Assembly: GCA_934660865.1 (NCBI GenBank)
Contig: CAKUIA010000012.1
Location: 30,001-62,000, forward strand
Length of the DNA: 32,000 nucleotides
Source of the DNA: an uncultured Opitutales bacterium
GTDB lineage: Bacteria > Verrucomicrobiota > Verrucomicrobiia > Opitutales > Intestinicryptomonadaceae
Reading direction: 5' to 3'
Under the pieces are notes generated by a model that was not told where the DNA came from, did not search any database, and saw only the letters and a program-made list of their open reading frames with translations. Positions 5,610-30,599 of the stretch are shown here, in pieces (the first letter of the stretch is position 1; each line of letters opens with the position of its first letter). The position numbers were made by a program, and so were the translations under genes.

Positions 5610-8099
5610 ATGTATACCGAAAACGAAAAAATTCAGCCGTCGAGCATAACCGAGATTATGCGCAACGCATATATCGACTATTCGATGTCGGTTATAGTTT
5701 CGCGCGCACTGCCCGACGTAAGGGACGGGCTTAAACCCGTGCAACGCCGCGTGCTCTATGCAATGATGCGCGAAGGCCTGCTCTACAACAGGGCGTTCGA
5801 CAAATGCGCGGGCGTAGTGGGCGAAGTTCTTAAAAACTACCACCCCCACGGCGACAGCTCAGTTTACGACACCCTTGTAAGAATGGGGCAAGACTGGGTA
5901 ATGCGCTACCCGCTTATTATGCCGCAGGGCAACTTCGGCTCAATAGAGGGCGACTCGGCGGCAGCCTACCGTTATACCGAATGTAAACTTTCGGCCATAG
6001 CGCAGGAGCTTTTAAGCGACATAGACTCCGACACCGTAGACTTTGTGCCCAACTACAAAGAGTCTACAACCGAGCCCAGCGTTTTGCCGTGCGCATTGCC
6101 CGCGCTGCTTATGAACGGCTCGACCGGCATTGCAGTGGGCATGACAACAAACATTCCGCCGCACAATTTGGGCGAATTGATAGACGCGACCTGCGAGCTT
6201 ATAGACAACCCCACAATTTCGATAGACGACCTTATGAAGATTATCCCCGGCCCCGACTTTCCGACGGGCGGCGTGATAATGGGCAAAGCCGGCATCGAAA
6301 GCTACATGAAAACGGGGCGCGGCATTGTAAAGACAAGGGGCGTTGCCGTTTGCGAAGAGCTTAAAAACGGCAAAGAGCAGATTGTAATAAAGGAAATTCC
6401 CTACAATGTAAACAGAGCCGCCCTTATCGAAACAATAGCGAATTTGGTAACCGACAAGGTCATCACCGAAATTAGCGACGTCCGCAACGAATCCGACGAA
6501 AATACGCGAATTGTCATAGAGCTTAAGCGAGGCGAAAGCCCGCGTGTGGTTTTAAACAAGCTTTACAAGCACACCCAGCTAGAATCGTCTTTCGGCGTGA
6601 TTATGCTTGCCCTTGACAAGCGCAGACCCAAGCAAATGAACATAAAGGAAATGCTCGAATGCTACATAGAGCACAGGCGCGAAGTTATATACAGGCGCAC
6701 AATGTTCATGCTTAAAAAGGCCGAAGACCGCGCCCATATCTTGGAGGGCTACAAGATTGCCCTGAACAACCTGGACGACTTCGTAAAGATAATAAGGGCG
6801 TCGAAAAGCAGGGACGAAGCCAAGATTACCCTTATGGCGAAATATCCCCTTTCCGAAAGGCAGGCAAACGCCATCTTGGAACTGAGGCTATACCAGCTTA
6901 CGGGCCTCGAAAGGGACAAGATAGAAAACGAGTATATCGAGCTTATGAAGCAGATAGAGGAATACCGCTCTATCATAGAAAACGAAAAGAAGCTTTTGGG
7001 CATAATCAAAAACGAAATGCTGGCCCTAAAGGAAAAATACGCCTCGGAGCGCAAAACGCAAATTCTGCCCGCCGAGGGCGAATTTAGAATGGAAGACGTT
7101 ATCGCAAACGAAGGCTGCATTATTTCGGTTTCGCACAACGGCTTTATAAAGCGCACAAGCGTAAGCTCGTACCGCTCGCAAAAGCGCGGCGGCAAGGGCG
7201 TTATAGGCTCGGGCCAGTACGACGAAGACTTTATCGAGCACATCTTTACGGCCTCTACGCACGACTATATTATGTTCTTTATGAACAACGGCCGCGTGTA
7301 TGTCGAAAAGGTATACGATATTCCCGAAGGCACGCGCATTGCAAAGGGCCGCTCGCTTAAAAACGTTTTGGCCTTGCAGCCCGACGAAAGCATTGCGGCA
7401 ATGATTTGCGTAAAAGACCTTTCCGAAGACAAGGGGCTTATTATGGCCACAAAGAACGGCGTCGTTAAAAAGACAATGCTCGAAGAATATAAAAACTGCC
7501 GCAAGGGCGGTATTATAGGCATTAATTTGGACGACAACGACGCCCTTATAGGCGTAGTTCTCGCCAACAAAGACGACAACGTTGTTCTTATCACCCACGA
7601 GGGCATGTCCATTAGGTTCAGCGAAAACGACCTTCGCGCGCAAGGCAGGGCAACGCGCGGCGTAAAGGGCGTAACCCTTAAAAAGGAAAACGACTGCGTA
7701 AAGGCAATCGTTATTGCCGACCCCGACTCCACACTGCTTATTGCGGGCGAGCACGGCCAGGGCAAAAGAACCTCGTACGACGAATACCGCCTGCAAAACA
7801 GGGGCGGCTCGGGCATAATTGCAATTAAAACTTCGGGTGTTGCAGGCGCCCTTTCCGTAAAGGAAGACGACGAAATTATGATGTTTACCCAGGGTGGCCA
7901 GGCGGTTCGCTCGCCCGTAAAAGACATTAGGGTTATAGGCAGAAGCACGCAGGGCGTAAGGCTTATAAACCTTGCCGAGGGCGACACGCTTATCGGCATT
8001 TGCCGCGTTGTAAACACCAAAGACGAGGAAATTGCCTCCGAACAGGCCGAAGGCGCGCAAGGCGGGCAGGCGGCCGATTCAACCCCCGAACAACAATAA
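5610..8099 (+). CDS. gyrA: DNA gyrase subunit A
   Basis: 829 aa. It has [14 protein letters not shown], the QRDR sequence [15 protein letters not shown], the catalytic Tyr context AAYRYTE, and C-terminal beta-pinwheel repeats. Confidence 0.95.
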
Positions 8100-10806: not shown

Positions 10807-10851
10807 TATTTATTTTGACACAAATTCCGCCATTTTGTTAGCTTCAAAACA

Positions 10852-12312
10852 ATGGAATGCGCCAAACCAAATATCCCGAATTTTGAAATTTTACGCAAAA
10901 TTGGCGAGGGCGGATTTGGCACGGTTTACCTTGCCCGCAAAAACGGCGCCTATTGCGCGCTAAAAACCGTGCTTGTAGCCGACGCAAAAAAGGAGATTGC
11001 GGGCCTAAAAAAGTACGCAGCCATTGCCGACAGGCAAAATCTTGTTGCGGTACACGATTGGGGAATTTCGGACGGATTGCTCTATTACGGAATGCCGCTT
11101 GCCGACCCGATAGACGCCGCTTTTAACCCCGAAGATTTCAGATGGCGCGTAAAATCGCTGCAAAGCCTGATAGACGAAAAACTGGAATCGCCCGACAATA
11201 AATGGTTTTCGCCATACGAGATTTTGGCGTATATTTCGCCGCTTTTCGACGCCGCCATTGCGGTTGGCAACGCAAACCTGCTACACCGCGACATAAAACC
11301 CGACAACGCGCTGTTTTTCGGCGGAAAAATAAAACTCTCCGACTTCGGGCTGCTGCAGCTCGACAAACGCTCGCTTTCGAATATCGGAACGCCGTTTTAC
11401 GCCGCTCCAAGCTGGTTTGTAGGCAGCGGCGGCAACCCCGATGTTTACGGGCTGGCCACCACTTTTTATACCCTTATAACCGGCAACTTGCCCGATACGA
11501 TAGGCCGCCCCGCCTACCGCTTCCCCGAAAAAATTGCCGATACAATCTCCGGCAAAGACAGGGAACGCTGGCTGCATTGGCACAGGTGCATATTGCGCGC
11601 CATAGCCGAAAACCCCTCCGAGCGCTATCTTACAATTAGGGATTTTAAAAATGCGGTATTGTCGGAAAACTTCTCGTCGTCGCTAATCGCAAATAACGGC
11701 AAGTCAAAGAAAACGCTGGGCAAAAAATACTTGGGCGCATTTGCCCTTTGCGTCGCAATTTTTGCGGGCGCATTTTTTTGCGTTCGCCAAATTTATTTTG
11801 GGAGAGACGCTTCAGAGCATGTCGGCGCCTTTGAAATGGACGGGCAAGTTTTTAACAATATATCCAAGAACGGCTTTTCGGACGAAGAATTGGGCGTAAA
11901 AATAATGTCGCACGCGCAATGGCTTGAACACAATAAAAACATTTACGGGCAGTTTAAATCCGACTACGAAAGCGCAAAGGAATTGTCTAAAAAAACAAAA
12001 GACGAAATCGCCGCCGAAGTTCGCAAAAAATATTCGGAAGACTTCGACAGGCTCTTTTCGAAAATAACAACGCCCGCCGAAAGGGAAATCGGGCTAAAAA
12101 AATATCTCGACGCAAAAAGGGAATGGATTGCCCGCGATATCGAAAGCGAAATAAAAAACGTTTCGCGCGCAAAAGACGGCTTAGGCGATTCGCTAGAAAG
12201 CATGTCGCTTATATCCGAAAGAATGGGAAACCCGACATTGTACAAACAATATGTTTTCGAAAGCTACGAACGCTACCAAAAACAAAAGTCGTTCGAAAAA
12301 AATTTAAAGTAG
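10852..12312 (+). CDS. membrane-anchored Hanks-type Ser/Thr protein kinase
   Basis: The kinase motifs are GEGGFGTVY (10903-10920), ALK, HRDIKPDN (11284-11307), DFG (11341-11349) and GTPFYAAPS. One TM helix (LGAFALCVAIFAGAFFCV) is followed by a ~170-aa Lys/Glu-rich C-terminal domain of unknown type. Confidence 0.88.
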   Translation: MECAKPNIPNFEILRKIGEGGFGTVYLARKNGAYCALKTVLVADAKKEIAGLKKYAAIADRQNLVAVHDWGISDGLLYYGMPLADPIDAAFNPEDFRWRVKSLQSLIDEKLESPDNKWFSPYEILAYISPLFDAAIAVGNANLLHRDIKPDNALFFGGKIKLSDFGLLQLDKRSLSNIGTPFYAAPSWFVGSGGNPDVYGLATTFYTLITGNLPDTIGRPAYRFPEKIADTISGKDRERWLHWHRCILRAIAENPSERYLTIRDFKNAVLSENFSSSLIANNGKSKKTLGKKYLGAFALCVAIFAGAFFCVRQIYFGRDASEHVGAFEMDGQVFNNISKNGFSDEELGVKIMSHAQWLEHNKNIYGQFKSDYESAKELSKKTKDEIAAEVRKKYSEDFDRLFSKITTPAEREIGLKKYLDAKREWIARDIESEIKNVSRAKDGLGDSLESMSLISERMGNPTLYKQYVFESYERYQKQKSFEKNLK

Positions 12313-24828: not shown

Positions 24829-24902
24829 ACTACTTTCTTTTTAGGTTCACCTATTGTTAAGAAAAAATTTCCACACATTTATTCTTATGCCGGCAGTATG
24901 TA

Positions 24903-24915
24903 GTATTGAGAATAC
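24903..24915. repeat. left copy of the 13-bp inverted repeat GTATTGAGAATAC
   Basis: It is the exact reverse complement of 25079-25091 and lies 75 bp upstream of the autotransporter ATG. A minus-strand TACATA at 24902-24897 abuts it. Confidence 0.9.
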
Positions 24916-25078
24916 TATACATGGGTGGTTGTTCGCTAACATATTGATATATAAGACAATCCACAAAAAGAAATAAAGACTGCCCGCAAAGAATATCTAA
25001 CGAAATAATCTAAAAATAAATGTCGGCTATTTTTATTCCAATGATTCTAAAGAATTTTAGATTTTTTATTTGACATCG

Positions 25079-25091
25079 GTATTCTCAATAC
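25079..25091. repeat. right copy of the 13-bp inverted repeat GTATTCTCAATAC
   Basis: It is the exact reverse complement of 24903-24915 and ends 1 nt before the recombinase ATG. A TTGACA at 25070-25075 lies 3 nt inside it. Confidence 0.9.
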
Positions 25092-26220: not shown

Positions 26221-26251
26221 ATCTGGCGTCGCAACAATCTTGTTTGTCGCA
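26221..26251 (+). repeat. 31-bp direct repeat, copy 1 (ATCTGGCGTCGCAACAATCTTGTTTGTCGCA)
   Basis: It matches 26821-26851 at 29 of 31 positions. Internally it has GCAACAA-N6-TTGTCGC, an inverted-arm layout with one mismatch. Confidence 0.9.
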
Positions 26252-26346
26252 TTTTTTGCCAAACTTTATGTTCAATTTTTTGAGCATAAAAACATTGAGC
26301 TTTTGCATTGCAAACACTTTGCTGAAATTTTTTAACGGAACGGCTA

Positions 26347-26382
26347 CTTTAAAATTTTGCGTAAATACGCAGAAATTTAAAG
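26347..26382. promoter_or_regulatory. 36-bp imperfect palindrome upstream of the ATPase gene remnant
   Basis: The sequence is CTTTAAAATTTTGCGTA-AA-TACGCAGAAATTTAAAG, with 15 of 17 arm positions complementary. It ends 9 nt before the ATG at 26392. Confidence 0.6.
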
Positions 26383-26391
26383 TAGGTTAAA

Positions 26392-26716
26392 ATGAACAGC
26401 GCACGCCCCATATTCGGTCGATGTCGGACAAGCCATCGTAAACACAAAAGATTCAAGAGGGACAAGCAAACGAAAGTATTTTGAAGTCGATTTTGTCTGC
26501 AATTCGGGGTTCAAACGCTATTATATCCAATCGGCTTTGGAATTGCCCACGAAAGACAAGGCCGAACAAGAGCTGCGGTCTTTGCAGAATATAAACGACA
26601 GCTTCCAAAAAATGGTGATAGTCGGTGGAATTGCCCCGACATACCAAAACGAAAGCGGCATTATAATTATGAACGTTTTTGATTTTCTTTTAGGCGATTC
26701 AAAACTTTTTGAGTAG
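26392..26716 (+). pseudogene. internally deleted, frameshifted paralogue of the COG1373 AAA ATPase gene
   Basis: The first ~8 codons (MNSARPI) match the start of the intact gene at 27191 (MNIARPI). At 26414 the sequence jumps to the homologue of 28147-28447 (YSVDVGQ...MNVFDFLLGDS), one base out of frame. The ATG frame then stops at 26482-26484. The junction lies in a shared ATATT. Confidence 0.8.
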
Positions 26717-26784
26717 CAAACTGCGCCGAGCTTAATTCCTGCGGGCCTTTGCTACGCAAAAATCCCATCATCGTTTTGCCTGCA

Positions 26785-26820
26785 AAAAACCCCGCAAGCC
26801 TTGCGGATTGCGGGTTTTTT
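26785..26820 (+). terminator. rho-independent terminator
   Basis: After an A-run, stem CCCGCAA (26791-26797) pairs with TTGCGGG (26808-26814), followed by a T-run at 26815-26820. Confidence 0.65.
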
Positions 26821-26851
26821 ATCTGGCGTCGCAACAACCTTGTTTGTTGCA
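26821..26851 (+). repeat. 31-bp direct repeat, copy 2 (ATCTGGCGTCGCAACAACCTTGTTTGTTGCA)
   Basis: It starts exactly 600 bp after copy 1. It contains perfect 7-bp inverted arms, GCAACAA (26831-26837) and TTGTTGC (26844-26850), around a 6-bp spacer. Confidence 0.9.
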
Positions 26852-27074
26852 ACATATTGACCTATAAGCAATAGGCGTTTTAACGTTATCTTTGCAGAAA
26901 CGTGAAAAGGCGTCTATCTTGCGAAAATTTTTGGGTCAGTTTTTTCGTAAATTAAGAGTTTAACGGTTTGTCTCATTTTTTACAGAACTTTTTGTCCGAT
27001 TCTTTGAATCGTAAAAACATTGAGTCTTCACATTACAAGCACATTACTGAAATTTGCTTTGAGGGGAGATCTGC

Positions 27075-27108
27075 TTTAAATTTTTGCGTATTTACGCATA
27101 ATTTTAAA
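27075..27108. promoter_or_regulatory. 34-bp imperfect palindrome, second copy of the GCGTA..TACGC motif
   Basis: The sequence is TTTAAATTTTTGCGTA-TT-TACGCATAATTTTAAA, with 14 of 16 arm positions complementary. Confidence 0.6.
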
Positions 27109-27145
27109 TTAAAAGCTTGATTTATCCCTAACATTGCCATTTATT

Positions 27146-27181
27146 TTCTAAGAAATTGCGTAAAAACGCAGAAATTTAAAG
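27146..27181. promoter_or_regulatory. third, half-degenerate copy of the palindrome, immediately upstream of the intact ATPase gene
   Basis: Its right half ACGCAGAAATTTAAAG is identical to that of the copy at 26347-26382. It ends 9 nt before the ATG at 27191, the same spacing as at the remnant. Confidence 0.55.
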
Positions 27182-27190
27182 TAAATAAAA

Positions 27191-28447
27191 ATGAATATAG
27201 CGCGCCCCATATATTTGCAAAAGCTCATCGACCGCAAGCAGAATGGAATGATTAAGGTCATTACCGGAATGCGGCGTTGCGGTAAATCTTTTTTGTTGTT
27301 TTCGATTTTTCGCGAGTACTTAAAACAGAGTGGCATTGATGACGGGCACATTATAGCAGTAGACCTTGAAGACCGTCGCAACAAGCAGTTGCGCAATCCC
27401 GATACGCTTTTGGATTTCATCGACAAAAAGATGTCGGGCAAAGGAGTCTATTACATATTGATAGACGAAGTTCAGATGGCGGCTGAATTCGAAGATGTTT
27501 TAAACAGTCTTTTGAAGAGGTCAAATGCCGACGTTTATGTTACGGGCAGCAACGCGAAATTTCTTTCGAAAGACGTGATTACCGAATTTAGGGGGCGCGG
27601 AGACGAAGTGCGAGTTCGCCCGTTGTCGTTTGCGGAATTCCATTCCGCCAATCCGCAAGAGGACAGAACCGCAGCGTTGTCGGAATATATGGCTTACGGC
27701 GGGTTGCCGCAAACGGTTTCGATGAAATCGGCTACGCAGAAAGAGGACTACTTAAAAGATTTGTTTTTGCACACCTACCTTGTGGATATAAAGGAGAGAT
27801 ACCGAATCAGAAACGATGAGGACTTGGAGGAATTGGTACGGGTTGTCGCGTCGGCAATCGGCGGGCTGACGAATACAACCAAGTTGCAGAACACGTTCAA
27901 TTCCGAAAAGAAAAGCAAGATTTCAAACGCCACGATTAAGAATTATCTTGATATGCTACAAGACGCTTTTCTTGTAGAAAAAGCTACGCGCTACGACATA
28001 AAAGGGCGCAAGTATATCGGCACGCAATCTAAATATTTCTTCGAAGACTTGGGCGTCCGCAACGCCGTGATAAACTTTCGGCAGTCGGAGGAATCGCACC
28101 TTATGGAAAATATGATTTACAACGAACTGCGTATGCGCGGATATTCGGTCGATGTCGGACAAGTCACCGTAAATACAAAAGATTCAAGTGGAACAAGCAA
28201 ACGAAAGTATTTTGAGGTCGATTTTGTCTGCAATTCGGGATTCAAACGCTACTACATTCAATCGGCGTTGGAATTGTCCACGAAAGACAAGGTTGAGCAG
28301 GAGCTGCGGTCATTGCAAAATATAAACGACAGCTTCCAAAAAATGGTGATTGTAGGAGGAACAGCCCCGACATACCAAAACGAAAACGGCATTATAATTA
28401 TGAACGTTTTCGATTTCCTTTTGGGTGATTCAACGCTTTTTGTATAG
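27191..28447 (+). CDS. COG1373-type AAA+ ATPase with a DUF4143-like C-terminal domain
   Basis: 418 aa. It has Walker A (ITGMRRCGKSFLL), Walker B (YYILIDEVQ), and a C-terminal FEVDFV motif typical of the PD-(D/E)xK-like DUF4143 module. Confidence 0.8.
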   Translation: MNIARPIYLQKLIDRKQNGMIKVITGMRRCGKSFLLFSIFREYLKQSGIDDGHIIAVDLEDRRNKQLRNPDTLLDFIDKKMSGKGVYYILIDEVQMAAEFEDVLNSLLKRSNADVYVTGSNAKFLSKDVITEFRGRGDEVRVRPLSFAEFHSANPQEDRTAALSEYMAYGGLPQTVSMKSATQKEDYLKDLFLHTYLVDIKERYRIRNDEDLEELVRVVASAIGGLTNTTKLQNTFNSEKKSKISNATIKNYLDMLQDAFLVEKATRYDIKGRKYIGTQSKYFFEDLGVRNAVINFRQSEESHLMENMIYNELRMRGYSVDVGQVTVNTKDSSGTSKRKYFEVDFVCNSGFKRYYIQSALELSTKDKVEQELRSLQNINDSFQKMVIVGGTAPTYQNENGIIIMNVFDFLLGDSTLFV

Positions 28448-28493
28448 CTGATTATATCATCTTCCCCCTTCAGATTTTAGTCTACATTTTTCG

Positions 28494-28528
28494 GGCGGCG
28501 GGGTATTTATTCCCTGCCGCCTTTTTTT
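28494..28528 (+). terminator. rho-independent terminator after the ATPase gene
   Basis: A 10-bp stem GGCGGCGGGG (28494-28503) / CCCTGCCGCC (28512-21), with one G-U pair, encloses an 8-nt loop. A T-run follows at 28522-28528. Confidence 0.75.
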
Positions 28529-28552
28529 GGGTAAATTTTTACTCAATAATAC

Positions 28553-28569
28553 ATAGCTTTGTAAGCTAT
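28553..28569. promoter_or_regulatory. 17-bp palindrome ATAGCTT-TGT-AAGCTAT at the head of the four-gene operon
   Basis: It has perfect 7-bp inverted arms and ends 5 nt before the ATG at 28575. Its position is operator-like. Confidence 0.45.
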
Positions 28570-28574
28570 TTTTT

Positions 28575-29105
28575 ATGAGTAAAGAATATTACACATTAAG
28601 AGAACTAATAGACAATAACGGCGGACTTTTGAATGACGAAAGTCTGCATTTTATAGCCAAACACGGCTTGCTGTGCGAGTTGTTGCTTTGCGACAATCGG
28701 CTTGGGGAGGAGGCGTTCTTGGCGTTGCCCGCGATGGGATATGCGCCAAACAGCAACGAGCTTGCGTGTTATCTGTATATGCGCGACGACCTCGATTGCA
28801 AAATGATGTCGGCTCTAAACCTGTCCGACGCAGTGATGTTAGAGTTGCTGTGTCTTGACCTCTCGCTTTTGCCTGCGGTAAGGGCGAAGGGATTATTTGG
28901 GCGAATCGACGAAGGGCAATTTGCGAGGATTTTCATCAACGCGTATCGCGCGGCGGAAAGCACTGAGCTTGTTGCCGAGTTGCAAAAGCGCGGATGGGCT
29001 TTTATGGACGCGGTAATTTTGGACTGCCCTGAGATAATCCCCACACTCGAACGAATGGGTGCGGATTTAGAGCAGTCGCGCTATGCCGAGTATTTTTCGA
29101 AGTAA
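28575..29105 (+). CDS. hypothetical 176-aa helical-repeat protein (possibly degenerate ankyrin-like)
   Basis: It shows repeating helix-pair segments resembling ankyrin periodicity (LHFIAKHGLLCELLL, FINAYRAAESTELVAELQKRG, AVILDCPEIIPTLERMGADL). The match is weak and made by eye only. Confidence 0.45.
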   Translation: MSKEYYTLRELIDNNGGLLNDESLHFIAKHGLLCELLLCDNRLGEEAFLALPAMGYAPNSNELACYLYMRDDLDCKMMSALNLSDAVMLELLCLDLSLLPAVRAKGLFGRIDEGQFARIFINAYRAAESTELVAELQKRGWAFMDAVILDCPEIIPTLERMGADLEQSRYAEYFSK

Positions 29106-29132
29106 ATTTTGTGAGTAGGAGAGATTTTCGAG

Positions 29133-30599
29133 ATGAAAGAAAAAATAGTTTCTACAATCAAAACGAGCGCGGGAGAGTTGCAACTTTCAGAAGACGCGCT
29201 TTGCAAACACACGATATTTATCGGCAGCACGGGCAGCGGAAAGACAACTTCGCTCAACGTGCTTCTTCGAGATATCATCGGCTACAATGCGAATGACGAA
29301 ATGCAAAAAGTCGGCTTGCTCGTCTTCGATTTAAAGGGCGACAACACGCTTTTTAAAATCCGAAAGTTGGCTAAGGAATGTGGACGCGAGGCTGACGTTA
29401 TCGACTATTGCGCCGACTCGCAGTTTTACTTCGACCCGCTCGGCGGCTTGGACAGTTTCCGCAATATTCCCGAATACGTCGAACGGCTTTACAACATCTT
29501 CCCATTCCAGAGTAGCGAGGTCTATTGGGAGCAGTCGTTAAGAAAGCGGTTCAAGACCGTGCTGACTTACTGCTTATTCCGACACGGAAGGATGACGTTT
29601 AAACTGTTCTTGGAAGAGCTGCGAGAGTTTACAACGGCGGATTCGACAAACGGTAATTGGCGCGGCGTGATGGATTCTATTGAGATGGTTTTGCGCGCGC
29701 TCGAAAAGAAGTCGAAAGGCACAGTCGCCGAATCATATGAAATCCTACGCGAACTTTTAGAGAACACGCGGGCGGGCGTTAACGAATGGCAACATCTTGA
29801 CCCGCGAACCAAGAGCAACGAGCTAAGCACGATGACGAACCTGGTTTCGAACTTCGGCAACCCAATTACTAATGGGCACATTTTCGAGGGGAAGAGCAAG
29901 ATGCGCTTGGACGTTGGCAAACTTGTGTGTGCAGGAAAGATTGTCGTGGCTTCGTTCGACGGCATCTCCAACAGGCAGTCGGCGGCGGCAATTTGCAAGC
30001 TCTTAAAGAGCGATGCCTACGGACACATTCAGACACGTCAAAATCCAAGCCGGCTTGTTGGTATTGTAATGGACGAGTTCCCGCTTGTGGCAACAGATGG
30101 CGAAAACATCTCGGGAGACGGCTTCAATATGCAGACAATTCGCTCAAAGCGCGGCTTTGTGATTGCCGCCACACAGGGACTTGTCGGGCTTGATTTGGCA
30201 ATCGGAGAACCCGCCCGTCGCAGGCTTATGACGAACTTCAACAACGTCTTCGTCTTCAAAAGCAACGAGCGCGAGGTGCTCGAACTGGTTGAAGATTTGA
30301 ACTTCTGTGAACCGCCGCAGAACAAAATCGGGTTCGGTAGTAATACCATTTGCGAAAAACGCGAACCTATAACGCTTGCCAATGCTCCCGCGGGCTACGC
30401 CGCGATAAAACTTGCCGACGGCTTCCAGTCAAAGGGTCTCGTTGAAATCGAGCGTCTCTATGTTGATACACCGCCAATGCCCGAAAATAGGCGCGAATCG
30501 GAAATCGACAAATGCGCAAAGGTTCTCCGAACCTACTTAAAGACAATCGATTTTAACGCCTGCCTTAACGGTAAATTTTTAGACAAAGACACTTTATAA
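29133..30599 (+). CDS. soluble TraG/TraD/VirD4-like (FtsK-HerA superfamily) P-loop NTPase
   Basis: 488 aa. It has Walker A HTIFIGSTGSGKTT (29223-29249), FDLKGD and FDPL motifs, Walker B IVMDEF (about 30060-30080), and RSKRGFVIAATQGL. Motif order and wording follow type IV coupling proteins, but there is no N-terminal TM segment. An AGGAGA RBS lies at 29117. Confidence 0.65.
   Translation: MKEKIVSTIKTSAGELQLSEDALCKHTIFIGSTGSGKTTSLNVLLRDIIGYNANDEMQKVGLLVFDLKGDNTLFKIRKLAKECGREADVIDYCADSQFYFDPLGGLDSFRNIPEYVERLYNIFPFQSSEVYWEQSLRKRFKTVLTYCLFRHGRMTFKLFLEELREFTTADSTNGNWRGVMDSIEMVLRALEKKSKGTVAESYEILRELLENTRAGVNEWQHLDPRTKSNELSTMTNLVSNFGNPITNGHIFEGKSKMRLDVGKLVCAGKIVVASFDGISNRQSAAAICKLLKSDAYGHIQTRQNPSRLVGIVMDEFPLVATDGENISGDGFNMQTIRSKRGFVIAATQGLVGLDLAIGEPARRRLMTNFNNVFVFKSNEREVLELVEDLNFCEPPQNKIGFGSNTICEKREPITLANAPAGYAAIKLADGFQSKGLVEIERLYVDTPPMPENRRESEIDKCAKVLRTYLKTIDFNACLNGKFLDKDTL

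Follow-up and report, generated by a model that had tools for sequence, protein, structure and literature searches.

A candidate invertible promoter switch between the genes of a giant autotransporter and a tyrosine recombinase in an uncultured Opitutales bacterium from the gut

Introduction

The DNA considered here is a stretch of 32,000 nucleotides (hereafter the window) from an uncultured Opitutales bacterium of the phylum Verrucomicrobiota (GenBank assembly GCA_934660865.1, contig CAKUIA010000012.1, positions 30,001 to 62,000; coordinates below count from the first letter of the window). Between the gene of a giant autotransporter adhesin and that of a tyrosine recombinase it holds a pair of 13-bp inverted repeats, which are very probably the crossover sites of an inversion system in which the recombinase would flip the enclosed 163-bp segment and, with it, one half of a promoter. 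An invertible promoter-type switch between an adhesin gene and its own recombinase had been proposed in the initial annotation, and the proposal is supported by a conserved architecture, by matched repeat cores and by homologous segments lying in opposite orientations. A literature search for phase variation in Opitutales found no paper, and the locus is very probably an inverton of a well-known type in a lineage unstudied for phase variation.

The repeat pair and its conservation in related loci

The spacer between the autotransporter and recombinase open reading frames (ORFs) is 264 bp long, as first annotated, and contains two 13-nt repeats, IRL (left) and IRR (right), that are 100% complementary and 163 nt apart (Table 1). 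The remaining landmarks of the initial annotation also proved accurate: a plus-strand TTGACA lies 3 nt inward of IRR, TATGTA (TACATA on the minus strand) abuts IRL from outside at 24897-24902, and the minus-strand -35 position now reads CCATGT. An inverted-repeat pair around a short intergenic segment is one criterion by which invertons are recognized, and the window has such a pair. Each 13-nt copy is its own palindrome of 5-3-5 form, GTATT-NNN-AATAC, and their status as inverted, not direct, copies depends on the central GAG/CTC alone. No known RNA family was found in the spacer. With up to one mismatch allowed, the window contains two exact and two one-mismatch copies of the motif against 1.0 expected; this excess over chance is modest, and the case is therefore built on comparison with other sequences.

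The comparison set consisted of about 62 contigs, gathered by looking up exact protein matches and by a single metagenome pattern scan, and comprising about 26 distinct switch variants; alignments and hexamer counts used 23 non-redundant variants from 40 loci, and two deeper clades, P0113 and P0083, were compared in addition. Contig L001 (ENA metagenome contig ERZ27286925 k141_945587) is identical to the window, and the two are counted as one. The related contigs (about 60) belong to uncultured Opitutales, mostly from the human gut. They have a common layout: a left repeat, 152-176 bp, TTGACA plus 3-4 nt, a right repeat, 1 nt and the recombinase ATG. The junction of repeat, single nucleotide and ATG is invariant in all family loci, and TTGACA is kept in 22 of the 23 variants (L067 has TTGCAA) as well as in the P0113 and P0083 clades. 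Even in L002 and L004, whose recombinases are 59-63% identical and whose interior DNA has diverged, the TTGACA, the junction and the repeat pair are retained, the latter reading GGTATTGAGAATAC... at the left and ...TTGACAnnGGTATTCTCAATACC-ATG at the right. The architecture is thus conserved across the roughly 26 variants despite recombinase identities down to about 60%. Furthermore, GTATT-N3-AATAC occurs 58 times in 227 kb of related loci, where 0.38 occurrences would be expected, and all but two of these are members of switch pairs at a recombinase start codon. The worry voiced in the initial annotation, that the motif might be a common transcription-factor site at non-invertible loci, is dispelled by these figures, and the repeat is neither a chance repeat nor a scattered operator.

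The genes beyond the switch vary from locus to locus. Surface and envelope functions are represented by autotransporters, further signal-peptide proteins of very large size, PEP-CTERM proteins, an Acyl_transf_3 enzyme and the lipopolysaccharide (LPS) enzymes WavE and Glyco_transf_25; the remainder includes a CAP12/Pycsar-type TIR protein, an Mrr-type nuclease, a dynamin-like GTPase and several unknowns. Surface, LPS and defence genes are the usual inverton targets in gut bacteria (PMC11892184), and the neighbours of the family switches are typical classes of phase-variable cargo.

Three contigs (L043, L067 and L071) share one target family, a PEP-CTERM protein beginning MKTKIVLMALL..., and a nearly identical outer-left flank (TATGGTCGCGTAC...), and carry three switch modules with cores CTA, CTC and TGT and with recombinases from two clades, which suggests module duplication, divergence or swapping. 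On L003, a right-repeat-like GTATTCTAAATAC (5987-5999) stands 1 nt before the ATG of a recombinase homologue, with a different gene upstream; neither a partner repeat nor TTGACA was found within 600 bp upstream of this homologue, which may be a decayed or solo module.

Co-variation of the core triplet

The 5-nt arms never vary in the family loci, whereas the central three nucleotides do, giving 7-8 core types. At IRR the cores CTC, ATC, CCC, CTA, CTT, CCA and TGT were found, each with its exact complement at IRL; a further core, CGT, is represented by one contig, on which the partner repeat lies beyond the contig end. Paired change of a non-palindromic centre is expected of a recombination site because the strand-exchange (overlap) region needs identical sites, a demand that a plain operator does not make. 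In tyrosine recombinases, it is established that an asymmetric centre sets the relative orientation of the two sites and hence leads to inversion, not deletion.

A variation on this theme was observed in the P0113 lineage, in which the recombinase is identical throughout: eight of the ten contigs (L070, L072-L077 and L079) have a one-nucleotide core mismatch, with GCA at the left and TGT at the right, and two (L071 and L078) have a perfect ACA/TGT pair (left repeat at 1320-1332). By the logic of strand exchange, the mismatched copies should be locked, and the lineage may be naturally polymorphic for locked and competent switches.

Both orientations among relatives

Contigs L018 and L019 carry one locus in related strains, with left flanks 85% and right flanks 96% identical and with the same GGG/CCC-core repeats. 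Between these repeats, L018 is 93% identical (151/162) to L019 once one of the two interiors is reverse-complemented, compared with 57% when both are read in the same orientation; L060 is in the L019 state. In L020 and L021, which come from two independent assemblies, and in L029, the TTGACA end lies at IRL, that is, the segment is flipped. In addition, the recombinases P0021 and P0028 show N-terminal read-through ORF extensions, which indicate more flipped contigs. Flipped states are present in at least three lineages with differing cores, each nested among majority-state relatives, and we infer that the window copy can flip as well. The 45 contigs with five identical recombinase alleles (P0005, P0006, P0046, P0083 and P0113) are all in the majority state, with no flipped copy among them.

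Two loci have additional repeats. On L029 (4369-4405), a locus in the flipped state, the left repeat GTATTTGGAATAC has two tandem copies at a distance of 24 bp, with a -10-like CATAGT beyond the outer copy. On L007 (5853-6045; also L008-L010), a second, relic switch follows the first module and has no recombinase gene after it; its left repeat GTATTACAAATAC is perfect, its right repeat GTATTTGTAAGAC is degenerate, and its interior, TTGACA included, is nearly identical to that of the P0113-type switch. The ORF of 340-342 aa adjoining this relic, its presumptive target, is still intact.

The flanking genes

The features of the window that bear on the switch are listed in Table 1. The target protein ends in a beta-barrel (PF03797 Autotransporter beta-domain, residues 1267-1510, E=6.8e-35), and its N-terminus, MKRIKKHKDPVYIAGRTVLLSLFYAAAGVYA, resembles a signal peptide.

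Table 1. Coordinates of the candidate switch and its flanking genes in the window (IRL and IRR, left and right inverted repeat)
Feature	Start	End	Strand	Description
Target gene	20236	24828	minus	1530-aa autotransporter (ORF list and Pfam); transcription leads away from the switch
Candidate -10 region outside IRL	24895	24902	minus	TACATA (24902-24897) with a 16-nt, or CATACT (24900-24895) with an 18-nt, spacer after inversion
IRL	24903	24915	n/a	GTATTGAGAATAC; proposed recombination site; invariant 5-nt arms, asymmetric 3-nt core GAG
Invertible segment (predicted)	24916	25078	n/a	163 bp; TTGACA end at the recombinase side, the majority ('N') state
Conserved block A	24935	24951	minus	GCTAACATATTGATATA; -35-like TTAGCG, 17-19 nt upstream of the repeat-embedded -10-like TATTCT
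Conserved block B	25030	25078	plus	A/T-rich UP-element-like tract ending in TTGACA (25070-25075), 3 nt from IRR
IRR	25079	25091	n/a	GTATTCTCAATAC; outward reading holds -10-like TATTCT, then 7 nt to the A of the recombinase ATG
Tyrosine recombinase gene	25093	26127	plus	344 aa; PF00589; proposed invertase

A site-specific recombinase beside the repeats is a further criterion for an inverton, and one is present, its action on these repeats being predicted. The protein exceeds the Pfam gathering threshold for PF00589 (Phage_integrase; 63.7 bits against a cutoff of 27.1), and R206, K233, R289, H312 and Y322 are invariant across the recombinase family, which has Asp286 throughout at the position of the usual first His of HxxR (the His-II position). 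Aspartate at this position is tolerated in some members of the tyrosine-recombinase family. The nearest solved relative by sequence is XerA (5hxy, E=2e-7). An Xer or integron-integrase equivalog was not found among the NCBIfam models, since the matches stayed below cutoff (XerA 58.9 bits against 220; XerC 50.9 against 335), and the protein is an intact member of an unclassified tyrosine recombinase subfamily. Neither a 5' leader nor a Shine-Dalgarno sequence separates IRR from its ATG. Database searches returned 1049 homologues, mostly 70-86% identical.

Among the homologues compared in this respect (P0002, P0009 and P0014-P0017, P0015 included), a tandem insertion of about 27 aa, FKRSANEISPQAKDPKGETAHKVSASQ, is present in 0, 1 or 2 copies at a single fixed position that separates the N-terminal from the catalytic half, and is an in-frame repeat of variable copy number. 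The window recombinase has just a 7-aa stub, FKQSASQ, in its place (approximately residues 125-133).

Predicted promoter anatomy of the segment

Alignment of the 23 variants revealed two conserved interior blocks, A and B, and an unconserved middle of about 80 bp. Block B has the consensus tTTtatTCAAa...TTccAaAgTa-TTTT.gAtTTTT....TTGACA. Since its TTGACA lies 3 nt from the repeat, a matching -10 must lie past the 13-bp repeat, at a spacer of 16 nt. On the recombinase side this position is occupied by CATGAA, CATGAC or GATGGA (CATGAA in the window), none of which has a T at -7 and all of which overlap the ATG. Beyond IRL, the first three bases are Y-A-Y in about 20 of the 23 variants, Y-A being conserved just outside both repeats, and strict -10-like hexamers (A at the second and T at the sixth position, at least 4/6 matches) start at offsets 0-2 outside IRL in 13 of 23 variants, against about one per offset elsewhere. 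In the naturally flipped L020, a promoter scan gives TTGACA-18-TACCAT a score of 10/12; it also calls TTAACA-17-TATTAT, likewise 10/12 and with a TG, which combines block A with the -10 embedded in the repeat.

On balance, we lean towards a split promoter, in which the adhesin would be low or OFF in the present state, and a flip would place the UP-like tract and -35 in register with the resident -10. The precise form given in the initial annotation, TTGACA-16-TACATA with the window in the OFF state, is borne out in part: the enrichment outside IRL and the L020 score speak for it, whereas the repeat-embedded -10 fits as well and TACATA lacks the -7 T.

At the other end of the segment, the -35-like hexamer of block A reads TTAGCA, TTAACA, TTGCCA or TTGCAA in relatives and TTGAAT or TTGAAG in the deeper clades. 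Block A also fits the IHF-type consensus WATCAANNNNTTR in the clade of the window and not in the P0113 and P0083 clades; an IHF site was therefore downgraded to a possibility, the match not being kept in the deeper clades. Within block B, a small palindrome, TCTAAAgaatTTTAGA (25046-25061), was considered together with a T-run as a terminator and rejected, as a scan found no terminator and the stem consists of A/T only.

Elsewhere in the window, intergenic TTGACA/TTGCCA boxes at 10815, 13316, 31612 and 2918 are preceded by A/T-rich DNA and followed at 16-17 nt by hexamers of CAT or TAC type (CATTTG, CATCCT, TACATA), not by TATAAT. At 10815, the spacing would put the start of transcription on the ATG at 10852, a hint of leaderless genes and of a -10 unlike that of E. 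coli in this organism.

The inversion mechanism we favour would run as follows. The adjacent recombinase would bind the invariant GTATT/AATAC arms, and strand exchange across the asymmetric 3-nt core, which has to be identical in both sites, would flip the 163-bp segment. The segment would bear at one end one half of a strong promoter, made up of the UP-like A/T-rich tract and the consensus TTGACA. In the present orientation, this half would face the recombinase ATG, with CATGAA at the -10 position, and give no productive transcript; after inversion, it would lie 16-18 nt from the TACATA or CATACT beyond the left repeat and drive, or strongly boost, the autotransporter gene. The adhesin would then be low or OFF in the window, which shares this state with most assemblies. 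The junctions of the inverted state are predicted to read ...GCAGTATGTA-GTATTGAGAATAC-CGATGTCAAATAAAAAATC and ...CCACCCATGTATA-GTATTCTCAATAC-CATGAAAAAC.

Alternative explanations

Several observations weigh against this interpretation, beyond the missing -7 T. A standard sigma-70 scan of the window in its present state found no promoter for either gene, and from the non-switch TTGACA sites no -10 consensus could be derived for the organism, these being 15 sites, a small and noisy set. The lineage of the window, for which exact-protein look-ups gave two independent contigs (window/L001 and L006), includes no flipped contig, and about 58 of the 62 fetched contigs share the orientation of the window, so that inversion must be infrequent, biased or under negative selection. 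At 5-3-5, the site falls well short of the length of the core sites known from textbook tyrosine recombinases. Moreover, target ORFs are intact in apparently locked majority-state lineages (the eight P0113 contigs and the L007 relic), which would be unexpected if the majority state were fully OFF. In most variants, finally, -35-like hexamers stand 17-18 nt upstream of the embedded TATTNN at the block-A end, and the adhesin would then be at least partly ON now. The last two points, together with the Y-A kept outside both repeats and the TTAACA-17-TATTAT called in L020, would be accommodated by an inverton of opposite or graded logic, a reading that we regard as possible and distinctly the less probable. 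Here each repeat would supply an outward -10 (G-TATTCT-CAATAC) and each segment end a different -35: block A (TTAGCG/TTAGCA-like) with the left-repeat -10 would already transcribe the adhesin from the Y-A outside the repeat, TTTAGA-18-TATTCT at the other end would yield a recombinase mRNA without leader, its first base the A of the ATG, and a flip would swap low and high promoter strength or toggle recombinase expression rather than turn the adhesin from OFF to ON. The invariant arrangement of TATTCT, 7 nt and ATG, without leader or Shine-Dalgarno sequence, suits such a transcript, and a start at the A of the ATG would therefore explain the invariant leaderless junction between repeat and ATG. 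Yet with the cores CCC, CCA, CGT and TGT the embedded -10 loses its -7 T (TATTCC, TATTCG, TATTTG) while the rest of the architecture is kept, the window has its block-A TTAGCG at a 19-nt spacer and nothing better than 3/6 at 16-18 nt, and this logic leaves no role for a near-invariant consensus TTGACA placed 3 nt from the repeat.

Three further explanations dispense with flipping of the window copy or with a switch altogether. That it is a fixed relic of a formerly active switch is improbable: the single orientation seen for its lineage would suit a relic, and the family does have relic or locked copies (the L007 second switch without recombinase, the mismatched P0113 cores), yet the window shows no mark of decay, with perfect repeats, a matched core, an intact TTGACA and a full-length recombinase with its catalytic residues. 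We consider it very unlikely that the recombinase is a mobile-element integrase, or the whole a MITE-like unit of about 190 bp, whose repeats would mark its ends or att sites and not belong to an expression switch. Such an element would account for a recombinase-plus-switch module that adjoins many unrelated genes, for the same target family and left flank occurring with three modules (L043, L067, L071) and for some mobile or defence neighbours (TrwC at a related locus, AAA_14 and HerA-like genes in the window); module spread by duplication fits the inverton equally, no tRNA and no plasmid similarity were found, the repeats are just 163 bp apart and enclose no gene, a promoter-like TTGACA/UP block is conserved at constant spacing to the repeat, and the rearrangement seen is inversion between the repeats, not insertion or excision. 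Least credible of all, to the point of being almost negligible, is the notion that GTATT-NNN-AATAC marks operators of a DNA-binding regulator, for instance in autoregulation of the divergent pair, and that no inversion takes place. The sites are indeed near-perfect palindromes of the kind bound by dimeric regulators, and every contig of the window's lineage is oriented alike. Operators have no need for reverse-complementary non-palindromic centres, yet the 7-8 core types keep them; the motif is found outside switch pairs just twice among its 58 occurrences; the neighbouring recombinase has all catalytic residues; and the homologous segments of L018 and L019, reverse-complemented exactly between the repeats, contradict this explanation outright.

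Comparison with known systems

By the design of their repeats and by their geometry, the invertons of Akkermansia are the nearest relatives described. Verrucomicrobia, sampled by Akkermansia alone, ranked top in intergenic invertons per genome (PMC10028968). The invertible promoters of Akkermansia muciniphila ('inverton group 138', cps1) share with the window the phylum Verrucomicrobiota and the gut habitat, and inversion of the cps1 inverton has been experimentally linked to a capsule phenotype (PMC13343947). Another Akkermansia inverton has 17-bp repeats around 157 bp (2092093-2092283) and lies beside autotransporter genes (PMC11892184), nearly the same geometry as the 13-15 bp around 163 bp seen here. 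The Akkermansia repeat motif, CGGATT..AATCCG, which is attributed to Jiang et al. 2019 in PMC13343947, likewise has palindromic arms and a short centre; the arms of GGTATT-NNN-AATACC differ from it in sequence, so that the motif itself is not shared. Akkermansia has about 30 invertons on one motif, whereas the Opitutales loci have one recombinase per switch, an ATG 1 nt from the repeat and diverse core triplets.

More distant parallels exist in other phyla. [quoted passage not shown] To our knowledge, an abutting start codon has not been reported for them. The initial annotation had called the locus fimS-like, a description that holds for its way of working and not for family membership, as no FimB/FimE family was among the NCBIfam matches at E<=0.01 and repeats and length differ. 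As in E. coli fimS with FimB/FimE, an invertible promoter element (a predicted one here) with short repeats lies between tyrosine recombinase gene(s) and an adhesin gene or operon, the population would be OFF-biased and DNA bending may assist, block A fitting WATCAANNNNTTR in the clade of the window. Unlike the element described here, fimS is 314 bp long, with 9-bp TTGGGGCCA repeats and a complete internal promoter, and the fim recombinases have their own leaders and promoters. Outward -35 boxes at the ends of insertion sequence (IS) elements form hybrid promoters with a resident -10. If the split promoter is correct, the same principle of a mobile -35 joined to a resident -10 across a junction would apply here; IS elements act by transposition, not by reversible inversion, and in the Opitutales switch the spacer would be the recombination site. 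What sets the locus apart from known systems is the dedicated recombinase per switch, the ATG abutting the repeat, the diversified core and, possibly, the split promoter.

The region downstream of the recombinase gene

Past the recombinase gene, an apparent 1-kb gap (26221-27190) consists of a leader region in duplicate. Here, a nearly perfect palindrome of 41 bp, CTACTTTAAAATTTTGCGTAAATACGCAGAAATTTAAAGTAG, is found at 26344-26385 and again at 27071-27111 and 27157-27186, the copies lying just upstream of the ATG codons at 26393 and at 27191 (the latter that of an AAA_14/DUF4143 ATPase gene), and further direct repeats of 31-64 nt recur at a spacing of 600-800 bp. This region looks like an operator-bearing promoter region that was duplicated along with a truncated gene copy. 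The genes that follow (27191-30599) encode the AAA_14/DUF4143 ATPase, a 176-aa protein without Pfam match and a HerA/FtsK-like ATPase (DUF87), and look like a defence or mobile-type cluster adjoining the switch module.

Significance

Inverton data for Verrucomicrobiota have so far come entirely from Akkermansia. The present locus and its roughly 1000 recombinase homologues point to a large family in uncultured human-gut Opitutales, built on one recombinase and one switch per module, which would control autotransporters, PEP-CTERM proteins, LPS glycosyltransferases and defence nucleases. A bolder and rather speculative view is that of a portable recombinase-plus-inverton cassette family with orthogonal 3-nt cores, a split promoter and a leaderless recombinase mRNA with its -10 in the repeat. 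In such a cassette the programmable 3-nt crossover core would keep dozens of paralogous switches mutually orthogonal, the UP-like tract and -35 would lie inside, the 13-bp site would serve as spacer and the -10 would lie outside, and each flip would alter target and recombinase expression jointly, with a built-in directional bias as a result.

The combination of invariant arms with a free but matched 3-nt core would amount to a compact set of natural orthogonal recombination sites. GTATT-N3-AATAC next to an ATG would be diagnostic in inverton annotation and might find use in synthetic recombinase logic. Phase-variable surface and defence genes shape gut colonisation, immune evasion and phage resistance, and the giant adhesin of the window is best treated as phase-variable when metagenomic expression or strain differences are read.

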